DNA of 63,047 nt, filler included, from Reclinomonas americana ATCC 50394 (Eukaryota): the NCBI GenBank assembly GCA_048213135.1. It is 7 parts of 6 records of this genome, joined end to end, with 100 filler letters (N's around TTAATTAATTAA, not from the genome) between each part and the next. Parts side by side here need not be neighbours in the genome. Positions count along the whole stretch, not along the records: positions 48,890 to 59,182 come from PS015778.1; 6 more parts are not named here. One strand, written 5' to 3'. The number at the start of each line of letters is the position of its first letter. The stretch's first letter is position 1. This document shows, piece after piece, positions 4,552 to 59,282 of the stretch. The translations under genes were made by a program, and so were the position numbers. The notes below the pieces were generated by a model. That model made no database searches. It was not told the origin of the DNA and saw nothing but the letters and a program-made list of their open reading frames with translations.

Positions 4552-7500
4552 TCACTGCGGTGCGCCGGCACGGAACTCGCGAATTCTCTCCAGCAGATCG
4601 GGACCTACAAGGCACCATTCCTCGTCACCATCAATTCCAGTGTCTCGCAAGATCGCACATGGAACACGTGACGCAACGAGGTATCAGGTCGGCCTCGGAG
4701 ATCGGCAAGTTGGTGAACGGATTCTTGCCCTTGTCCATGATGCATCGCCGGATCGCGTCGCGGTCAACCACTTGCCCGCTCGGCAGCTCCACGGGGTCGC
4801 TCATGAGGTCGTCGGTCAGCGCATCTGCGTGCGAGAGCAGCAAATTAGCAGTGGCACGCACCCATATACTGTGGCGCGCATACCACGCAGTTCAGGCGGC
4901 GGATCGGCAAAATAGGCAGCCTGCCGTTCGACCACGAGCTCCGCGTCGACCAGGCGACGCAAGAACATGTCGAAGCGGTCGCACTTGTCGTCCGGAATGA
5001 TTCCACGATTGCGCAAGAGCACCGAGGCGTTCTCGAATGTGCGTCTCTTGTAGTACAACGTGTCTCGTACGACAGCCAACGGAAACTGCTCCTCGTCCGA
5101 CATGCACACATACATGCTGGCGGTCTCGCTCAGCAGTCGCCGCGGATCGAACTTGTACTGCTCGCGATTCTCCACCTGGCGCGCAGGCCGACCACGACGA
5201 TCAGTAACACGAACAGTCAACCAGCCACACACTGTACTCCCATCATTTCTCACCTGCAACTGCGAGTTGGCATTGGTCAAGTAGTTCAGCAAGTAGTTCA
5301 GGACGCCCACAACACGCGGCAGCATCGCCTGCGAGACAACACCATAAGCACCACAAGCAGGCAGTGTGAATGCGTGCTCGACGAGACCTCGCTGCAGAAA
5401 CGGCGGGGAATCATCTCCGACATCCAGCGTGTCATCTCGGTGGTGGCCATGGAGCACGAAATGTACGACTTGGCGCTCTTTTGGTTCTCTCGGTACTCGC
5501 GCACCTGCGCCTCTTGTGCGTCCTGCGCACGAGCAAGTGTCAGAACACAGCTGTGTCGTCGCCCTAAAAAATGGAACAGGGAGACTGACCGCCGGGAGCG
5601 ACAAGAAGGCTTCTTCGTGGCGCTGCAGCTCGTGCTCCCGAATCTTCTTCAGCGTGGCAATGGTCTCGTCCAGCAGATACGTGCAGTCGTTCAGCAGCAT
5701 GTGCAAAAAGTGATCAAAAAGCGAAGTGCTGTGGACACAGACCGTCAGCATCAGCAAGAACTATGCGCACGTGGAGGGAGCCAACACACGCACTTGGCCA
5801 AATCGAGAATGCGCGGCGTCCAGTGTCGGTGGGAGCGCATCTTGGCGAACACAAGAGCCACCAGGTGGCGTGCCTGGTACTTGTCGAATCTCACTGCAAA
5901 TACACAGTCAGATCACAATCAATATTCGCTGTCACACAAGAGCACACCACGCAACGTGCTTCCGCATCCACATACAGCTGAATGCTATTGTGTGAACAGC
6001 GGGGTCAGTGAGCTGTACATGCACCGAGGAGTGGAAAACGACGAAAAATGACGCAACATGCCAGGCACGAGCATCGCCGCAATGTCGGGATTGTCGAGCA
6101 TCACGAGCAGCGACGGTTCTCTCTGACCACGCTGAATGAGGTTGTACACCACCTGCGTGCACGCCAAACGTGAGAGCGTGAGTTGGAGGAGGAGGAGAGC
6201 GCATACAATGTCCGTCGCTCGTTGGCGTCTACCTTCAAGAAATCGTGCCGAATGCCTGCATTGGTCACCAGCCGCTTGTGTGCAATGAGCTGGGACATGA
6301 GGGCCAATGACCATGCGCACGACTGCACTTGCAGCACATTGGCGCTCTCGGTAAGTGCCGTGAAGTGAGCCAGCAACTCGCCCACATTCTCGGCCAGCAT
6401 TGTGGGCAGCATGGCATAGGTCGGCGGGACCTCGTCGGGAATGGATCTGTTGGTGTGCACGCAAGTCAGCCAACGCAGGTGCCAGCGCGTTGTGTGCGTG
6501 GCAGACTCATACCGCACGCTAGTCGGGCTCTCCAGCGCGTCGGGACTGCTACCAATGGCGTGTGCCAGCAGGTAGCGTGATGATGCCTCTGTGCGACAGG
6601 AACACAGTTCAGTCAGCGGTGCCAGGTATACACGTACTGCTCGGCAACGCACCGAGGTAATCCATCATAGGCAAGAACACATCGCGATCGTAGATCAGGC
6701 GATCAGTGGCCAGAAGCCACCGCCACTGCGGCATGAGTGGCTCCAGACCCTGCATCCCACACGAAAAAATAAGCAAAAGAACACACATCGCCATCAGTGG
6801 GGGCACGACGGCGGCGCACCTGGCCAGCGTGCTCGATTTCGGCCTGGTGGTACGTGTTGGCGGTGAACTCAAACACCTTGCGGGTGCGTATGAGACCCAG
6901 ATTGATGCAGCGGGCGGTCATGAAAAAGAGCTCCGAGTTGAAACTCTCCGGCACCTCCGGATGCTCTGCGACCGGCGTCATTCACGGCGCGCCATATTTG
7001 AGTTACACTAGAGCGCCACACAGACACACACCTCCTGCTAGATACTGTTGCACATTCTCCTCCGACCACACCAACCGATCGAGTGGGTGCATTGCGCAGT
7101 AGCGCTTCGTCAACGTGTACTCGGGTGCAATGGTCGACAGACGGCTGCCGGTGATCACCGGAGCCACCAAGTTCAACATAATGGCCGACAGGTTCAAGAA
7201 CTGCGACACATGCGTGTGAGACATGCAGACAGGCAAGGCGGCAGCAGTGCTCTCGCGACACGCAACAAAGCCCTCGGTGCCAAACTGGTGATCGACGTCA
7301 CCACCAAACAGCTCAAACTGCGGGTGAGAAGCAATTGTCAGCGTGCGTGCGTGTGCGTTGAAGAGCTGCAACGCAAAAAAACACACCCGAATGGAGTTGC
7401 GCATACGGCTGGCGTCCAGCGCCACGCCGATCCACTGCAGAAGTGCCGCGCGCGAAGGACTGTTGCGATCCTTCAGAAAATTGCGGAAAATCTGAGTGAG

Positions 7501-9150
7501 CACACTCTGCGCACAGCGACACTCCACACAGTGAGTGAGGTGGGTAGCCGGACGACGGCCAGCACGTCACTGCACCTGGTGTGACTGGATTTTGCTGGAT
7601 AGAACAGAGATCTTGGAGTCGACGTCCTTTTGCGAGAGCATTTTGGTGGGGAAGAAGCGGCGCAGCAACTCGGTCTGCATTGCACACGTGAGCACCCACG
7701 TTGAACGCACACACACATGGAAATGAGAGGCACACAACCTGCTGGAGCGGGTGAAAGCCCACAAGAATGCCGAGCAGCGACGACACTTCCAGCTGTCGAC
7801 CGTAGAACGACTCGTGCAGTGGCATTGGCATCCATTGCGGCTGGCTGATCAGCTGTGCACTCGCTCGACAGAGTGAGAACGAGGTGATTGCGGGAAGCGC
7901 GGAGGGATCAGCTGCCGGCGTACCACTTTCTGCACCGCACGGATGCACGTGAGCTTCTCGCACGCAATGACCAGTGGGAGGAAGTTGTCCAGCATGGTCA
8001 TCTTGACAAGCTCACGATTCACGTGATTGAACTGGGCGATGCACATCTGATAATGGCGCATCGTGTTGTCAGTGCTCTCTCGTCTCTCCACACACACGCA
8101 TCACACCACGTTACCTTCAGCAGCTCAATCTCGTCACTCTCATGCACCCCCTCCCAGATGGCCATCATGAACTCGGCAGACACCGAATGCTGACCCTCGC
8201 CACACAGACCACGCAGCAGTTCGCGACCGGCCCGTCCCCAACTGGAGTGCCAAGGAAGGTTGGCTTCCAACAACGACTAAAGAGAGAGGTGGCGGCATCG
8301 GCACTCACTTTGACACGTCTCGCTCGCCGGCATACATGATCTCCAGTTCGGCACTCCTGCACAGAGGATGAGCAACTCGTAGCGACGACACAAAAAAGGA
8401 CAGCGACGACGGAACACTGCTGCCGAATGCTCGCAGTCAAACAGATCGTAGTTGAGCAGCAGCAGCTTGCTGATGCGGCAGATCACAGGCAACACCGCCG
8501 ACTGTAGCACATCGACCACCGGCGCCTGCGATTCCTGCGCTCGCTCCATGAATGTCACCAACTACGAACAACAGAGAGCGAGAGATGCATGCGCGGACCT
8601 CCAGTCGCTCCGCGTGCTCCCTCGCTCGCTCAAAGCAGCCGGCCAAGTACTCGAGTCGCGACTGCATTCGTGGCTTGTTTCGCGGGCTTGATCCAGCAGC
8701 AGCCGACGACGATGTCGGTGATGATGACGATGCCGAAGAGGAGGGCGACGATGGAGACGAGACTTCGCCTTCTGCTTGGCCTCTGTGCGGCAGAAAGCGC
8801 GGGTCGCACGAGAGGATCTCCACTAGCGCAGGTTCCACGTGCTGTGCACACAGGAGCAGTGCTGTGCAGAGGGTGGCATTGAGTTGAAGAGACAAGAGAC
8901 AAGAGCGCGTGTGTGTGTGTGGAGACGCAACGACGATTGGCTTGTGCGAGCTCCAGATGGATGCATTGCAGGTGGTAGTAGGTACGCGGATCGCGCTGTT
9001 GTTCCACCGCATTAGTGTGTGTGTATGTGAGTGAGAGAGTGTGTGACACGTGTAACTCGACGCAACAGAGGGATCCACTGTGGCCTGCAGCACGACATTC
9101 AGTGCACGCGATATGCTGCGCGCCAACTCTTCCTCTTCCGAGTCACTCAT
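4552..9150 (-). CDS. UFD2: Ufd2/UBE4-family U-box ubiquitin conjugation factor E4, more than 20 exons
   Basis: Spliced motifs TEGFFLNLSAIML, FNSELFFMT, FLHMLLNDCTYLLDE, QVENREQYKFDPRRLL and a C-terminal U-box PPPELRDALTDDLMSDPVELPSGQVVDRDAIRR...NPFTNLP. Confidence 0.93.
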
Positions 9151-13194: not shown

Positions 13195-14948
13195 TTACAG
13201 AATGGAAGCCAGCGCATTCTCAAAACGATAGGCGCGCGCGGTGCTGGCCGGCAAGCGGTTGACAGCCGCACGTGCAGTTTCGACACCGCCCCACGGACTC
13301 TCCTTCGGGTCCAGCGGCGCGAAGAAGGGATCTGCAAGGCAATCCCGTGAGAAAATAATTGCAGAAAAGCTCCAAGTCCACAGCTGGAGAAACGCAACGA
13401 TCGGTGCCAAACATGACGCGGCTGGGGTCGGCGAGCTTGGAGAGGGCCGACATGGCGGGATCGCCGTACACCAGGCAGTCGTAGTACAGCATGCGGAGGT
13501 AGTGAGACGGCGGGTGGGCCAGCTTGTGAGCCACCTGTGACAGTGGTCAGTCAACTCACGAGGGAAAAGAGGAATAGAAGAGAAAGCGCACCTCCTTGTC
13601 TGTGTGGACGCAGTGATCGAGGCGGGCCATGAGGTACGGCAGGGTGCCACCGCCGTGCGCAATCAGCATGCGCAGCTGCGGGTGACGATCGAGCACGCCC
13701 GACAGCACCATGCGACACACGGCGGTCGTGGTCTCGAACGGGAAGCCGAGTGCCAGGTACAGACTGTGACCGTAGCCACCTACGCGCGCACACACACACA
13801 CACACATATGAGACAGGGCGCCGAAAAGAATGCCCGTCAACAACCGGGGAGAATGCGAACCGCCATACGCCTCGTTGCCGAGACCGTAGTGCGGGTGCAG
13901 GAAGAGCATCAACTTGGTGCGCTCGAGCGCCGACCACAACGGCTCCATGAGCGGATCGTCCAGACCGCGACCGAGCCCCGTCGAGCCAATGATGAATCCA
14001 CGGCAGTGCGGGAGACGCGCCACGCGTTCAATTTCCTCCACACATGCTTGCGGATCGGCCTGCACACGCAAGGTCAGCGCAGAGCAAAAAAACACGACAC
14101 GCACCCAGCGACGCACGCACGCACCACCGGCAACACGCCAAACCACAACAGCCGCCCATTCGAGTTGGCACTCATTCTGCACACTGCGTGAGCAACGATA
14201 ACGAAGGAGCGAAAAAAGAGCGCGGCGCAAACGCAACTGCTCCAGATCGTCATTCACGATCTTGGCCAGTCCAGGCGCCTCAGCCGCGCCCACAAAGTCC
14301 AGCCACGGATTCGCCACACTCACCACCGACACCTACAACGAAGGTCAGCAGCAACAACACAGAGCACAGGAAGAGCTGTTGCTGGACCTGAATCTTATGC
14401 ACGTCCATGAAGCGGATCTTCTCCTCGGCCGAGTAGAACGAGGGCCCAATGACACGCCCGCGCTTGGTGCTCGCCTCCGCCGCCTCATCCGGCAGGATCA
14501 CCAAGCGATCCTCTCCACTCTCCGCGTGCCGAAACACAAACGGAACCGTCGAGCGTGCACGCATAATCTACAACCCCCCCGTTATAGTGTTGGCGACGAA
14601 TGCACAAGAGTGGAAGAGTGGAAGAGCGCAACATCCATGTACACAGGCGGATACATGTGCGTGTGCACATCGACCGTCCAGCCCTCCTCGTAGCGCTTCA
14701 TCGCCTGCGCACTCACCGACTACGCGCACGTGGCATGAGCGTGCAACAAAACACACACACTTGCACACAGAGGAGGAGAACGCAACANNNNNNNNNNNNN
14801 NNNNNNNNNNNNNNNNNNNNNNNNNNNNNNNNNNNNNNNNNNNNNNNNNNNNNNNNNNNNNNNNNNNNNNNNNNNNNNNNNNNNNNNNNNNNCGACTGTG
14901 ACGCCACACAGGCAACGCGCGAGCCGACGCACGCAACAACATGGACAT
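13195..14948 (-). CDS. Amidohydrolase-2 family decarboxylase, isoorotate (uracil-5-carboxylate) decarboxylase/ACMSD-like; contains an N gap
   Basis: Spliced motifs VDVHTHMYPP, SVANPWLDF, FLHPHYG, LALGFPFETT, AHGGGTLPYL, MFGTDHPFF. N-terminus MSMLLRASARALPVWRHS resembles a mitochondrial presequence. Confidence 0.88.
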
Positions 14949-17970: not shown

Positions 17971-19727
17971 CTATGAACTAGCCCCGTCGGTTATTGACAC
18001 GGGTGCTGCGTCGGCGGCGCTGGCACCAGCCGCCATGGCGACTGCGGCTTCCACCGAGGCGGCGGTGGCCGACAGCCGGAAGCTGATGTGCTTGGTGATG
18101 AGGTCAATAGCAACTGTGCAAGCACATGCCTCTTGTGTCAGCTAGGCAGAGAAACAGGGAGCAAATGCACGAAATGAGGCTCACCAAAATTGTCACCACC
18201 GCGGGGGATGATAATGTCGGCCCACTTCTTCGTCTGCAACGGACATGCGTTTGTTAAGCTGCTGCGCGACTCATTCCACAATCATCGGAGATGGGCAACT
18301 TACCGGGTTGATGTACTCGTCGTAGCTCGGCTTCACACTCTTCTCGTACTGCGTCAGCACCGACTCGAGAGTTCGACCGCGCGACGTAATGTCTCTCCGA
18401 ACTGAGCAGCAAGGGAATCGTCAGCGCTCAACACACGCACGCACACAGAGAATGCGTGTCTGTGGAGGTGACACGCAACTGCGTCTCTGGTGGTGGATCG
18501 TGAGAAGCACAGCAAGTGAGTGAATCGTTGACGTGCACACAACAACGCGCGTGCAAGCATGCATACGTACCGCCAGCCGGGTATCAGAATCCTGTATCGT
18601 TCATTGCGGAGGTCAGCACCAAGTTTGCGAAACACAGGAGACATGTGGGCAACGGTGACGCAACAGTGTCCACAAAGATCTTCATGTCCATCAGCTCGCG
18701 GGCCTCGGCATCGTACAGTGCCATAATACCCTGCGACAACACACAGATTCGGCGATGAGCGAAAAGCGATCGATCCTGCTCCAGTAATCGCTCGAGCATC
18801 CGCACCTCGATGATCACCACCTCGGTGCCCTGCACGCTAGTGTGGCCCACCTGCACCGCCCAACCCCACAGTCAGCCAGCCACTCATGCACGAACTCACG
18901 AACGGATCATCAACCAACACACCCTCGAGTTGGTCTTGAAGTCATACTTTGGAATCTGCACAGCCTTGCCTGCAACGGACATCAGCACACACACTCACAG
19001 CTACATCGCCTCTCATCGGAACACACCTACACGCAGCGCCCACAGCACATCGCGGAACAGCTGGTGATCGAACGCATCTGCAATCACACTCGCCACTGTG
19101 AGCCATCGCTGGGCAGTGACACACACTCACTCGCTTCTCATGCTGCCTCGCACCTGGATGATCAAAGTTGTACGCTCCGGAGTGTGCCAGATCCTGCTCG
19201 TCACTGCCACCATCGTCAGACAGACAGACAGTGAGAGAGAGAGAGAGAGCTCTGACACCTACTCACCAGGTCAACTCCTTGTAAAAGTTGTCGTGTGACA
19301 CCATGGTAACCCGGCCATCCAGTGCCGCACAGATCTGCAACACAACGCACATGCGGTGAGTGGCACTCCAACGCGCATATGCGTGCACAAGTCGATCGCC
19401 ACCAAACCTTGTCACACACAGTGGTCTTTCCAGAGGCCGTGCCACCCGCCACACCTGCATTACACAAAGAGAACAAGTCCATTTTCAGGAGCAGGGGGGA
19501 GGTCACGGGGGTGCGTGTCAGTCACAAGTGCACATGCACATGCACAGAGACAAGCACAACACACAACACACACACACACACGCGCGCGTGAACGGACCAA
19601 TGATGAGTGCGCGACGTGAGGGCGTCAGTGGAACCTCCCTGTGTCGACCAAAGTCACCGCCCTCCTCCACATCGTCAATCTCCTCCTCGTCAAAGGTCTC
19701 CAACTCGGACAGTGCGTGTGAGGTCAT
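17971..19727 (-). CDS. UCK: Uridine(-cytidine) kinase
   Basis: Spliced [91 protein letters not shown]. Confidence 0.95.
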
Positions 19728-38869: not shown

Positions 38870-39436
38870 ATGGGCTCCGCCGGATCAAACGAGGTCACCT
38901 CCAGCCCCGACGAGAACGTCAGTTGCGTTATACGCCCGCTTTTCCCGGTGCTTTTTCCACCTCGCGTGTCGCTTGTGTGCGTTCTCGCGCAGTCATGAGA
39001 AATTTCTCGCACTCACCTCTCGCACTGTCGTTCTCACTGCGTCTCTGTCAGTCACTCTCTCTCACTCGCTGTGTTAGTCAGTCACTCTTGCCATGACACT
39101 GTCCTTCTCGCTCACTCTCTGTGTGCACAGCCAGCAGCTCCGACGTGACACAGACGCTGACACAGAACGGCCTGCAGACCACCGGCAGTGCCAGTGTGTG
39201 CGTAACACCTCCCCTCACTCACTCTCTGCGTGTTTGAGAAGTGAGACTGATGCTTTGTTGTTGTTAGCGATGTCAATGGACACTCCAAGTCAGTCGACAT
39301 CAACGGTGATGACTAGAGAGAGACATATGTCGTGCTTGGCCTGTGCCCTCACGTGCATCGTCATCTTCATGCAGATCTGGAGCCCATGAGCGAGTTCAAC
39401 CCGCTCTCCTTTGGCAGCAACAGCGGCAGCATGTAA
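38870..39436 (+). CDS. Possible small S/T-rich spliced hypothetical protein
   Basis: ATG exon MGSAGSNEVTSSPDENV ends at GTTGCGT; later coding-like segments are bounded by AG/GT; internal phases are ambiguous. Confidence 0.3.
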
Positions 39437-54303: not shown

Positions 54304-56120
54304 ATGTGCGCCCTCCGCGCCAGCCCACCAAGCAGCTCCGTGCGCGTCAACGTGAAGCTCATGCTGCAATTCGCCGTCACGGACGTGCAACCGCACCGCG
54401 ACTCCGTGCGCAGCCTTCTCGACGCGATCCGCGCACACCTCACCGAGGGCCGACCCGGCGGCCTCGCCCTCGACCCATCGCGCCTCGTCTTTGAAGAGAC
54501 ACACATGTGTCCCAACGGTGGCATCGAGTGGACGCCTGTGCACCCCGACGACCACCGCCCTCTGCACAGTCACAACGCCGCGCTGTTCATTGACCTGCAC
54601 GAGGTGCCTCTCGACAGCTGCTCAGCGCTGACGACGGCACACGATGCGGCCGAGCAGCATCGTCGCCTGCTTGCTGTGCGCGGGGAGACCATGCGGCCGA
54701 ACTCGTGTCCATCGCCCATGCCTTCACCGCAAGAGACGAAACACAATGAGCCTGCCGCCGCTTCTCCGTTTCCCGACGAGTCTCCTGCGCCCTCGGCTCC
54801 CACGGTCATTGTAGGCGCAGGAGGAGGAGGCGCAGGAGGAGGAGGGCGCAGAAAGTTTCGTTGTCAGGGGCGGGAAGGCGACAGCGAGGGGGACGCGCAT
54901 CGTGACTGTCAATTTGTTGTTCCGTGTGTTTGTCTGAGCAGGAGTCTGCCGTCTGGAGGCGCACCATCACTGGCACCCTCAGAGTACATGCATTCAAGGT
55001 CTGTGTGTGTGTGCGTGCGCACGTGTGTGTGCCTCTCATCGCTGCCTCACNNNNNNNNNNNNNNNNNNNNNNNNNNNNNNNNNNNNNNNNNNNNNNNNNN
55101 NNNNNNNNNNNNNNNNNNNNNNNNNNNNNNNNNNNNNNNNNNNNNNNNNNNNNNNNNNNNNNNNNNNNNNNNNNNNNNNNNNNNNNNNNNNNNNNNNNNN
55201 NNNNNNNNNNNNNNNNNNNNNNNNNNNNNNNNNNNNNNNNNNNNNNNNNNNNNNNNNNNNNNNNNNNNNNNNNNNNNNNNNNNNNNNNNNNNNNNNNNNN
55301 NNNNNNNNNNNNNNNNNNNNNNNNNNNNNNNNNNNNNNNNNNNNNNNNNNNNNNNNNNNNNNNNNNNNNNNNNNNNNNNNNNNNNNNNNNNNNNNNNNNN
55401 NNNNNNNNNNNNNNNNNNNNNNNNNNNNNNNNNNNNNNNNNNNNNNNNNNNNNNNNNNNNNNNNNNNNNNNNNNNNNNNNNNNNNNNNNNNNNNNNNNNN
55501 NNNNNNNNNNNNNNNNNNNNNNNNNNNNNNNNNNNNNNNNNNNNNNNNNNNNNNNNNNNNNNNNNNNNNNNNNNNNNNNNNNNNNNNNNNNNNNNNNNNN
55601 NNNNNNNNNNNNNNNNNNNNNNNNNNNNNNNNNNNNNNNNNNNNNNNNNNNNNNNNNNNNNNNNNNNNNNNNNNNNNNNGGCCAGACAGCGCGAGCCCCA
55701 GCGGACATAAACAAAAGTTGTCGCCCTCAACGCATTGTAGACGGAGTGGGCCGTACACTTCGCATCCATCCACGTCCGCACTGACGATCCCACTCCGTCG
55801 ACCACACGATGCAGCCGGATTCGTCACCTGCAGCGCATGGATCATCGATATCGGTATCCGAATGCCTCGCGATCGGCAACAGCACACCGCGCGCGCGGTC
55901 AGTCGACATGGCCTGCGAAGTCGCATCTGAACTGGTGGTGATCATCGTGGCCGATGCTGACATTGGCCGGTGGTATGGCGATGAGCTGCCGAACGGCGCT
56001 CCGGAATGGGCCGTTCCTGTAAATGTCGAGCTTCCCACCTATGAAGAGCTGATGCTCCGTGCAGAAGAAGAAGCAGATGCCTCCTCGTGTGGCGAAGAAG
56101 TGTATGACAACGACCCGTGA
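54304..56120 (+). CDS. Hypothetical protein or proteins interrupted by a gap
   Basis: Long coding-like frames at 54304-~54870 and 55809-56120; no family recognised. Confidence 0.35.
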
Positions 56121-56165: not shown

Positions 56166-59059
56166 TCATTGCACTGCAGACACGACGAGCAGCGTGTGGT
56201 GGCCGAACTCGTCACCCACGTCGAAATCGACAAAGGGTTCGCGGCACAGCGGGCACTGAGCGCCACCGGAGCGCTGTCGGCCGAGTAGAAGCTGTGCGCA
56301 GCCTTGGCACAACAGTTGGTGACCGCATGGCTGCAGGCGTGTGTCGCGTAAACCGTCGCACATTTGGCAGGCGTGCCTGCAGGCGACGGTGGCCAGCGTG
56401 CGCGACTCGGCCGCTAGCTCATCGGCCGACGGACGGCGCTCCAATTCGTCACTCACGCAACTGCATCACCGAGCTCGTCAGCACAGCCCTCAAGACTGGT
56501 GGCCACCATCAATCGTGCACTCACCGCAGTGCCAGCCTGACGATGCGAGTGCACACTGGCGACGGCCACGTACGCCCCGCCTGGCCGTCGGCCAACTCGG
56601 CTGCCTTTGCTTCGAATGCATCCACCGCTGACGAATCACCAGTGCCCGCCTGATATTCGAGTCGTCCCAGAGTGGCCAGCTGTGCATGCACCTCGTCGAC
56701 CGGCAAACCCGAGTACAACTGCAGCAGGATGATGCCGAGCGAGAAAATGTCAGCACTCGGTCGCAGCTTGCCGAGAAGCGCTTGCCGATCTGCGTAGCCA
56801 GGATCGCCGGCAACCTGCACCGACATGTGGGTCTGCGTTGCAACGCGCAGTTGTTCAGTGGTGGCATCAGTGGCACACGATGTCACAGCGAAAGCGTACG
56901 TACCCCATCGGTGCGAAACAGTTGCGCGATGCCCAGATCGGCCACATGCACTTCTCCGGCGTCGTCGAAGAGAATGTTGGCGGGTTTGAGATCGCGGTGA
57001 ATGACTGTCAACACGTATCGTTATGCACCGCACGAGAAGATTCATGCTTTGCAGAAACTCACCGTTCTAAGCAGCAAAAGTCACGAGAGTGGGACTCGGG
57101 TTAGCACCACTGGTGTCTGTCTCACTGCACAAAGTAACATGAAGAAAACATACCATTCTGCGCACACTGCGTCAGCATCTCACGAGTGACACACTGCGCG
57201 GTGAACGCCGTACGCAACTTGTGCAAGTTGGCGACCACTTCCGCACACCGAGCGAAGCAGTGCGTGCGGTCTTCGATTGCCATTGGCCGCAGATGGTGCC
57301 TCTGGTTCTCCAGCAGTCGATGTTGCAGATTGTGCTCGCTGCAGACAAAAGTTGAGCGCACAGTGAGCGTGTTGCAGACAACAAATGCGCTGGCGGCTTC
57401 ACCTCATGCGCTCGAGCACCAGGCATCGCTGACCGGCATCCGACTCCGAGAACCCAATCAGTCGAACAATACCCGGCATGGCGGCCGCCTGCAAAACGTC
57501 CAACTGGGCAGCCGTGCAGGGATCAGTCTCACACAACGTGGCACAGGAGATCCGACAGTGACCTACCTCGCTGGTGAACGAATTGATGTGACGCGCAGCG
57601 GCACCGTCAAACACCTTGACGGCCACCAGCTGCTTGCCGAGACTACCCGCGTACACTATGGCCTGACCTCCTCGACCGATGCGCTGTGCAAAGCCGTCCG
57701 TCATGGCAACAATTTCGTCCCACGAAAACGGTCTCGGCACATCTTTGTTGCGGTGCCACGGATGAGCTATGAGTGGGCGAGTGCTGCTCAAATGAAAGAG
57801 GCAAATACACACCACGTCGATTTCCGTCGACGCCTCCTCTTTGTACACGGTCGAGTTCGGCAGCCAGCAACGCTGCACGCTGGCGATACTCGTCCATCTG
57901 CGCCACTTCCAAACGCAACAACCGCTGCTGCTCCTGCATGTCAGCGACGACGGCGTCGCGCGCTGCCAGGTGGCCTCGCAGCTGTTCGATCTCGGCCTCG
58001 CGCTGCAGCTGATGCTCATGCCATCTCCTCATGGCCGCCTGCTGCTGCTCCTGGTACCCTCGATGCAATGCAGCGATCTCAGCGTCGTGCTGCAGCGCAC
58101 GAACTCTCACGGCGGCACGCTGCTCCTCCAGCTCACGCTGCAGGCGTGCTACCGCGTCTTCCAACTCGCGCACACGACTCGCCTGTCCTTTTTCCTGAGC
58201 CGGGGACGCACGCATGAGGAAGACGCGACGGCTTCAACACGACGAGCAGAGTCGTCAACAATAACGAACCTGTCTCCGTGGCAGCGGCAGAGGTGGCGCC
58301 TGCGGTGCATCTCGACGTACTGTGTGGCAAGTCAGTCGCCGAGAAAAAGAGGAGGGCGGTAAAGAAAAAACTGCAGCTCACCATCATCCGCCCCCGCTTG
58401 CAGCAACACGTCGATGATTCGCCCCCCTCCCAGACTGCGAGCCAAGTGCAGTGGTGTGCTGCCGAGATCATCCCGCATGCTCAACAACTCGGGTGCGCGC
58501 GCAGCCAGCAAGTGCACAACGCCCTCGTGACCGCGATGCACGGCCCAGTGCAACGCGTTACGACCCGGCTCGTCATTCAGCTCATTCGTGACTGCGCGCA
58601 CCATTTCCACTGGACACCGTCGCTCGTCGGCCAGCAGCCACTGCACTGAGTACCATTGACCGGCGTACGCCGCACGCATCAGTGGTGTCCACCCGTAGTC
58701 GTCGGCAAGCGCCACAAGTTGCGCGCCAACACCACTGTCGGCCCACAGGTAATCCAACATTGCAATGTGCCCGCAGGCGCCTGCGTGACTAAACACCGAT
58801 TCACCACTGTCGGACATCCCACGTCTGCTCAGCAGCACCTCGGCACCCTGCAAGTCCACCAGTTCGCGCAGTGCGCGCACATCGCCATCGGCCGCGAGAT
58901 CGATTACACTCTTGCTTCTCTCTCTCGGATTCTGGTGTTGGTGCTGCTGCGGCAGTCGCCGTCTCCGACGACGATTCTCACTGTGTGTGTGAAAGTGACA
59001 CGGGTGAGTCGCGCATGCACGAGAGCGTGGAGGAAAGGGAGAGCGCGAGGGCACCTCAT
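56166..59059 (-). CDS. Ankyrin repeats + coiled coil + IRAK/RLK-Pelle-like protein kinase + C-terminal RING finger
   Basis: Ankyrin motifs GWTPLMRAA, GRNALHWA, GSTPLHLA; kinase PFSWDEIVAMTDGFAQRIGRGGQAIVYAG, VAVK, VIHRDLKPANIL, ADLGIA, GDPGY, ADIFSLGIILLQL, RRPS; RING CQMC...PCGHQLLCQGC...CPLCR. Confidence 0.88.
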
Positions 59060-59182: not shown

Positions 59183-59282
59183 NNNNNNNNNNNNNNNNNN
59201 NNNNNNNNNNNNNNNNNNNNNNNNNNTTAATTAATTAANNNNNNNNNNNNNNNNNNNNNNNNNNNNNNNNNNNNNNNNNNNN
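59183..59282. other. Artificial scaffold spacer
   Basis: N44-TTAATTAATTAA-N44. Confidence 0.97.

Follow-up and report, generated by a model that had tools for sequence, protein, structure and literature searches.

Very short coding exons have been described in plants, where ultra-short microexons of 1-15 nt include a validated 4-nt exon in rice as well as adjacent exons of 5 and 12 nt in Peptidase M1, and in Chlamydomonas, whose microexons include kinase motifs (PMC8831610, PMC11096116; published systems are described here from the accessible portions of the papers cited). In animals, RPS24 contains consecutive regulated microexons of 3, 18 and 22 nt, and microexons have likewise been described in Drosophila (PMC8042270).

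Atypical 5' splice sites and atypical U1 snRNAs have also been reported. In humans, 5' splice sites shifted by one base (+1-shifted) are read by canonical U1 (Roca and Krainer 2009, as cited in PMC4856993). In Entamoeba and Mastigamoeba the 5' arm of U1 is altered to fit an atypical donor (bioRxiv 10.1101/2022.06.08.495308), and in the diplonemid S. specki two U1 5' ends, canonical and altered, occur side by side (PMC12621601). A tunicate paper of 2026 deals with a case in which the route of a specialised U1 was not taken (PMC13326754).

Here we describe a kinase gene of Reclinomonas americana ATCC 50394, located in a stretch of joined genome parts of 63,047 nt (the window), in which two consecutive exons of 4 nt would lead into the catalytic loop. 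As in the plant examples in the portions consulted, these are internal exons whose lengths are not multiples of three, they encode a domain motif at a conserved position, they are traps for annotation, and they are fused in some relatives where the flanking introns were lost or are absent. Unlike the plant microexons described there, both adjacent exons measure only 4 nt and belong to a lineage-specific kinase-RING family known from genome sequence alone. The occurrence of several tiny exons in series is shared with RPS24 and Drosophila; animal microexons, as described there, are largely alternative and the coding ones are mostly multiples of three, whereas here each exon shifts the frame within a catalytic domain. 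A literature search of partial coverage, from which supplements and most subscription papers were missing, retrieved no paper describing a neighbouring pair of 4-nt exons and no GTTGCG donor class with a U1 of its own. The pair can be regarded as an extreme form of a known microexon phenomenon, the proposed coupling between donor and U1 being the more surprising part.

The kinase-RING gene and its family

The predicted product of the window gene carries, in this order, ankyrin repeats, a coiled coil, an IRAK/RLK-Pelle-like kinase domain and a C3HC4 RING (Table 1); within the model the start codon and the first exon, of 5 nt, are provisional, the coiled coil was called from the sequence and the Pfam hits were made on single exons. 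Searched alone against Pfam, the C-lobe exon gave no match; the C-lobe of paralog L033 gave a weak Pfam Pkinase match, with IRAK4 as its best PDB match (E 2.5e-8). The best PDB match of the N-lobe exon of the window gene was a plant LysM receptor kinase (E 0.0046). Based on these best matches to IRAK4 and RLKs, obtained with single exons, the family may provisionally be called IRAK/Pelle-like. The residues of an active kinase are all present in the gene model (VAVK, HRDLKPAN and DLG), which makes activity a prediction, and both the G-loop and the P+1 loop deviate, the latter having GD where GT is usual. An acidic open frame on the plus strand (55850-56115) converges with the kinase gene, the 3' ends of the two facing each other, and stops about 50 nt short of the kinase stop codon.

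Table 1. Predicted features of the kinase gene, and one further gene, in window coordinates
Feature	Position	Strand	Description or basis
Whole gene model	56166..59059	minus	12 exons, 714 aa, frame open once spliced
Ankyrin-repeat exon	58382..58980	minus	Pfam Ank_2 PF12796, E 8e-18
Kinase N-lobe exons, G-loop and VAVK	57403..57742 (57567-57742, 57403-57503)	minus	gene model, PDB match
Exon 7, end of helix E (His + 2 nt, AA)	57219..57338	minus	63 genome matches; family alignment
Atypical +1-shifted 5' splice site, CAA/GTTGCGTAC	57210..57221	minus	complementary to variant U1 over 11 positions
Intron 7	57158..57218	minus	61 nt, GT...CAG; branch-like CTGAC at 57171-57175
Microexon 1, AATG (last base of Lys codon + Met)	57154..57157	minus	homologues in paralogs
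Intron 8, phase 0	57067..57153	minus	87 nt, GTATGT...TAG; branch-like CTAAC at 57100-57104
Microexon 2, AACG (Asn + first base of Val)	57063..57066	minus	homologues in paralogs
Intron 9, phase 1	57005..57062	minus	58 nt, GTGAGT...CAG
Exon 10 (IHRDLKPAN of the catalytic loop; DLG)	56904..57004	minus	Pfam Pkinase, E 2.7e-8
Kinase C-lobe exon	56525..56832	minus	gene model
Last exon, C3HC4 RING	56166..56460	minus	Pfam zf-C3HC4_3 PF13920, E 6.5e-9
Ufd2/UBE4-family gene	4819-7566	minus	GTTGCGT introns at 7266, 6057 and 5955

A search with the family profile among 2968 candidates found no homologue, either spliced or from outside this genome; one hit in the 50%-representative library, a repeat protein, was judged spurious. 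The family pattern gave 208 matches on metagenome contigs, with no relative among them, and a query made of the C-lobe and RING had as its sole match the kinase-RING protein P0001 (34% identity). No close relative was thus found in the libraries and metagenome contigs searched and, judged from these searches, the family is lineage-specific and expanded, with about 60 copies in one genome. It resembles the IRAK/Pelle/RLK superfamily in its best PDB matches (IRAK4 and plant receptor kinases) and in the variable loop between helix E and HRD, and P0001 in joining kinase and RING in one protein. Unlike IRAK/Pelle/RLK kinases, it has an ankyrin N-terminus and GD in the P+1 loop, and no death domain or transmembrane domain was seen in the family.

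A second copy of the window gene (L002/L097, an allele or a recent duplicate) shows 97% identity to it. In a comparison covering exons 1-11 plus 12 nt, differences occur at 28 of 1863 exon versus 32 of 743 intron positions, and indels are confined to non-exon sequence. That the gene is an untranscribed pseudogene and its motifs relics is hardly credible: although some paralogs show altered catalytic loops or a frameshift, as this reading would allow, the 714-aa frame is intact and the codon changes relative to the second copy comprise 22 synonymous versus 6 replacement, with zero indels in exons.

The 4-nt exons and their homologues

On re-reading the minus strand, the coordinates, intron sizes (61, 87 and 58 nt) and GT...AG ends given in the sequence-only reading proved exact. 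The spliced frame would place K-M-N-V after the helix E His and directly ahead of IHRD. Four residues is the common spacing between helix E and HRD in protein kinases. Both 4-nt exons have AG before them, GT after them and spliceable introns on either side, which are the flanks taken here as microexon-like. Most introns of the family have branch-like motifs; the acceptor of intron 9 is without a clear one under the pattern used.

To gauge chance, the 216-nt interval was subjected to 2000 dinucleotide shuffles and searched with a lax donor pattern that had been loosened after the data had been seen. A frame-restoring microexon-like pair arose in 5.4% of the shuffles and one of 4+4 nt in 0.15%, and the same shuffling of eight other paralogs gave 0.2-7.4% and 0-0.25%, respectively. 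In a scan of the whole window, 23 microexon-like motifs came up, of which two or more are demonstrably false, and a microexon-like motif alone is therefore weak evidence. Further short exon-like motifs on the minus strand, candidates only, lie at 18480-18486 (7 nt), 14717-14719 (3 nt) and 39223-39225 (3 nt).

The paralogs provide a comparative test. Exon 7, which lies upstream of the microexons, gave 63 matches in a genome-wide search, and a pattern of phase-1 acceptor plus HRD had 55 exact matches in the whole genome versus 0 for the reversed control. Regions with both flanks were recovered for 62 paralogs; L022, which has an N gap and lacks the downstream exon, was left out, as were hits ending before query residue 30 or with E > 1e-3, such as L047, and L050 was kept with an N gap in its middle intron (intron 8 position). 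The 62 regions are not independent, as they include alleles and recent copies, and correspond to 59 distinct protein rows and about 12 lineages.

Among these 62 regions the exons measure 4+4 nt in 51 and 10+4 nt in seven, the first is fused upstream in two and both are fused in two; that is, the homologue of microexon 1 is a separate exon in 58 regions and fused upstream in the other four. The frame is kept in 62/62, the total being 12 nt in 55 and 18 nt in seven. The 10-nt variant fits the observation that the length of the loop between helix E and HRD varies among related IRAK/Pelle/RLK kinases. An automatic scan detected exactly two microexon-like motifs in 55/62 regions, and the frame was restored in all 55; the remaining seven were set by hand, namely L012 and L057 (third candidate), L064 (first donor missed), L089/L090 (one microexon) and L033/L034 (none). 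In L089/L090, where the first microexon is fused upstream, six coding nucleotides are followed by one 4-nt exon; in L033/L034 ten coding nucleotides (2+4+4) are followed by one intron, and the last intron of the gene is also absent. These four regions may serve as natural controls for the microexon model. The fused state may have arisen by loss or may be ancestral.

In the 58 regions with two microexons, the second reads AATG in 44, AACG in six, CCTG in five, CCCC in two and GGTG in one, and changes in the microexons are codon-like (Asn AAT/AAC, Lys AAA/AAG). The introns vary in sequence as well as in length: the middle one (intron 8 position) measures 76-991 nt and the one at the intron 7 position 60-94 nt, with all three length classes modulo 3 represented. 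The pair occurs in about 10 of the 12 lineages of a quick tree based on the flanking exons only, the deep branches of which are not resolved. Altered catalytic loops (HGN, HCD, HGD, HRN, RRD) were observed in L025, L026, L071-L077 and L089-L091, possible pseudokinases in which the microexon structure is kept, and L092 has a frame shift directly past the catalytic loop.

Family-wide conservation and the paralogs with microexons fused upstream strongly support the earlier proposal that two 4-nt microexons lead to the catalytic loop. From this evidence we infer, with a probability of about 0.85, that both are real coding exons, most likely included constitutively. Three short introns would then sit within 12 coding bases, in the loop that joins helix E to the catalytic HRD. 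Sizes of 56-99 nt and branch-like motifs suggest that each intron is probably recognised singly, by intron definition, and exon size would therefore hardly be limited. Strict intron-by-intron definition would let tandem exons shrink to 4 nt inside a catalytic domain.

Alternative splicing models

The statement that only inclusion of both microexons restores the frame is, strictly, false: allowing up to three introns of at least 40 nt each, 410 GT-AG combinations keep it. Of these paths 157 keep helix E and four also keep the four-residue loop; among those four, the 4+4 model has the best weakest donor. The in-frame bypasses, weaker and unconserved, could represent minor isoforms.

One such model uses a single 8-nt exon at a time, possibly in a mutually exclusive manner, ending at the second GT of a GTNNGT donor. 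Frame and four-residue loop are kept in this way, two models of this type in the window copy also keep helix E, and GT is present at +5 in 47/51 (intron 8 position) and 33/51 (intron 9 position) of the 4+4 paralogs. This GT is, however, part of the donor consensus anyway, the shifted donors pair less well (6.0 vs 7-7.5 pairs) and show no conservation past the GT, and 4/51 paralogs have neither +5 GT. Moreover, L089/L090 need an exon of exactly 4 nt and L033/L034 hold 2+4+4 coding bases, all of which makes the 8-nt exon very improbable.

The microexons might also be dispensed with altogether, leaving one intron, if the donor lay 5 nt downstream or if intron 7 were read as coding. Both versions are open in the window copy, with 713 aa for the downstream donor (a loop one residue shorter) and 733 aa when intron 7 is retained and microexon 2 skipped (a loop 19 residues longer). 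Reading through intron 7 fails in 48/58 paralogs, and in the 97%-identical second copy intron 7 carries a +1 nt indel, by which coding read-through is ruled out in that copy. The downstream donor has GT in only 38/58 paralogs, and no consensus. As two conserved units of acceptor, 4 nt and donor would be left unexplained, we give models of this kind very little credence.

Skipping has severe predicted consequences, in agreement with the sequence-only reading: when the gene model was spliced in our script, omission of one or both microexons wrecked the kinase C-lobe and the RING. With either one skipped, the product has 617 aa, without HRD or RING, and a stop 8 nt into the last exon; with both skipped it has 538 aa, and the stop lies 225 nt upstream of the last junction. 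The skipped products are therefore truncations, and only the double skip has the upstream stop typical of decay substrates; UPF1 was found in the genome. As skipping shifts the frame of the kinase, the sequence-only reading had suggested that the microexons could act as an on/off splicing switch, in which regulated skipping would turn the kinase-RING protein off. The unproductive products and the presence of UPF1 would suit such a role, and retention of so awkward a structure over many lineages could reflect a use. Against it, in four paralogs the boundaries of one microexon or of both are missing while the coding letters are present, microexon variation is codon-like, other microexon sizes merely track the variable loop length, and ultra-short microexons of plants are described, in the portion consulted, as conserved and as merged via intron loss (PMC8831610). 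The switch is thus unsupported and appears improbable, and constitutive inclusion is the likelier condition.

The first donor and the two U1 snRNAs

The ends of the three introns had been called normal. GT and AG are indeed present in each, but the first donor, AA/GTTGCGT, is not normal, its consensus being shifted by one base. Two kinds of U1 gene occur in the genome, a canonical one (L100) and a variant (L098/L099) in which three bases of the 5' arm are substituted; the variant has four stem-loops and intact 70K and U1A loops and Sm site. The variant matches Rfam RF00003 over its full length (1-166, E 1.5e-14) and no other Rfam family at E <= 0.01; both genes score slightly below the Rfam cut-off of 69.5 bits (64.0 for the variant, 63.7 for the canonical). 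Searching metagenome contigs for the variant-U1 pattern gave 0 matches. The duplex computed for the first donor of the window gene reaches -13.6 kcal/mol with the variant versus -1.4 with canonical U1, and the in-register pair scores are 10.5 and 4.5, respectively.

Across the family, donor class at the intron 7 position follows the last exon base in 58/58 paralogs: GTT-type donors (43) all come after A and ordinary donors (15) all after G. Every GTT-type donor pairs better with the variant (mean -12.6 vs -1.6 kcal/mol) and every ordinary donor with canonical U1 (-10.2 vs -3.3 kcal/mol). Position +5 is C or T in 43/43 GTT-type donors, matching the need of G5 in the variant. The ordinary class was found in two separate clades, and L033/L034 have a GTTGCGT donor at the third intron position, after T. 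By eye, L061 and L056 show apparent shifted-type donors at the intron past the C-helix Glu codon, which is ordinary in most paralogs.

The motif is also frequent outside the kinase genes. In non-kinase DNA, which includes 12 loci chosen for having it, GTTGCGT ranks first among 30 permutations of its letters (101 occurrences vs 60 for the next); a branch-plus-acceptor motif follows in 61% vs a background of 29%, and G stands at -1 in only 7/101. Genome-wide, the AA-donor 9-mer occurs 2344 times vs 1477 for the reversed control, a count that includes foreign contigs and carries little weight. The three GTTGCGT introns of the Ufd2-family gene in the window restore its frame, those at 6057 and 5955 flanking a 29-nt exon. 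As to a possible minor (U12-type) identity, introns of the GTT class share CTCAC/CTGAC-like branch motifs with ordinary introns; a search for U12 gave no match, which is not proof of absence, and one of the genome for U5 snRNA, uninformative as to absence, gave none either.

Across the family, the donor of the first of the three introns thus occurs in two classes, according to the split codon: AG (Arg/Ser) is followed by an ordinary donor, which canonical U1 would read, and AA (Lys/Asn) by GTTGCGT, most likely read by the variant, whose three 5'-arm substitutions make the one-base-shifted register almost fully complementary. The homologous intron would flip class with its split codon, AG vs AA, and in L033/L034 the class would go with an exon ending in T. 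It can thus be proposed that two coexisting U1 snRNPs divide the major-spliceosome introns, canonical U1 serving ordinary donors and the variant the +1-shifted GTTGCGT donors, a proposal for which we consider the odds to be even.

Alternatively, canonical U1 may read GTTGCGT by pairing in a shifted register or with a bulge, the variant being a bystander or the U1 of a second organism; this we regard as possible but rather doubtful. Both types of register are established for human sites, as described in the portion consulted of PMC4856993, and a shifted canonical register also predicts A at -1. Yet canonical U1 pairs poorly with these sites (the mean of -1.6 kcal/mol given above) and the +5 bases are those that G5 of the variant requires, and preservation of the stem-loops and Sm site speaks against a bystander. 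A mixed assembly could be suspected from the two kinds of U2 and the compositionally foreign contigs C1 and C2. Nevertheless, contigs bearing either kind of U1 match the 4-mer composition of the window (r 0.95-0.98), all with an excess of GTTGCGT, and one and the same kinase gene contains both donor classes.

Several observations concern the assembly and the other snRNAs. Contigs C1 and C2 of the genome (L126-L143) are multi-megabase, with a GC content of about 0.47 and a 4-mer correlation with the window below 0.1; they are probably from another organism, perhaps bacterial. The two distinct U2 genes, L156 (G000:C14:162841-163039) versus L157/L158 (on C409 and C371), score 114 vs about 85 bits and have identical branch-recognition sequences. 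U6 gave three hits in the genome, of which the two read are identical. The 12-nt TTAA-type spacer between N runs at 59227-59238 of the window, and similar gaps, are contig joins and thus an assembly device.

A division of introns between two U1 snRNPs would differ from the systems described so far, as far as the accessible portions of those reports go. The donors resemble the human +1-shifted sites in that A occupies -1 and the consensus lies one base further inside the intron; the human sites are rare, whereas these are common, and they occur together with a U1 gene whose arm is complementary in the shifted register. The Mastigamoeba U1 and the variant share a U-to-G change reading C in the donor, but Entamoeba and Mastigamoeba have one altered U1 candidate fitting the donor consensus, whereas canonical and variant U1 coexist here. 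The variant U1 of S. specki is presented without a tie to a distinct donor class, in contrast to the match of each U1 to one class in the present genome. Unlike both S. specki and the amoebae, two donor classes occur here at the same homologous intron, each with a matching U1.

Tandem 4-nt exons within a catalytic domain would be close to the smallest size that exons reach, and about 60 kinase genes of this genome would be broken or mis-spliced by gene finders. Four states within the family (4+4, 10+4, one fused and both fused) act as internal controls, so that gain and loss of microexons may be traced in a single genome. The match between the donor class of the first intron and a second U1 opens to direct test the long-standing question of whether U1 paralogs specialise on a class of introns.
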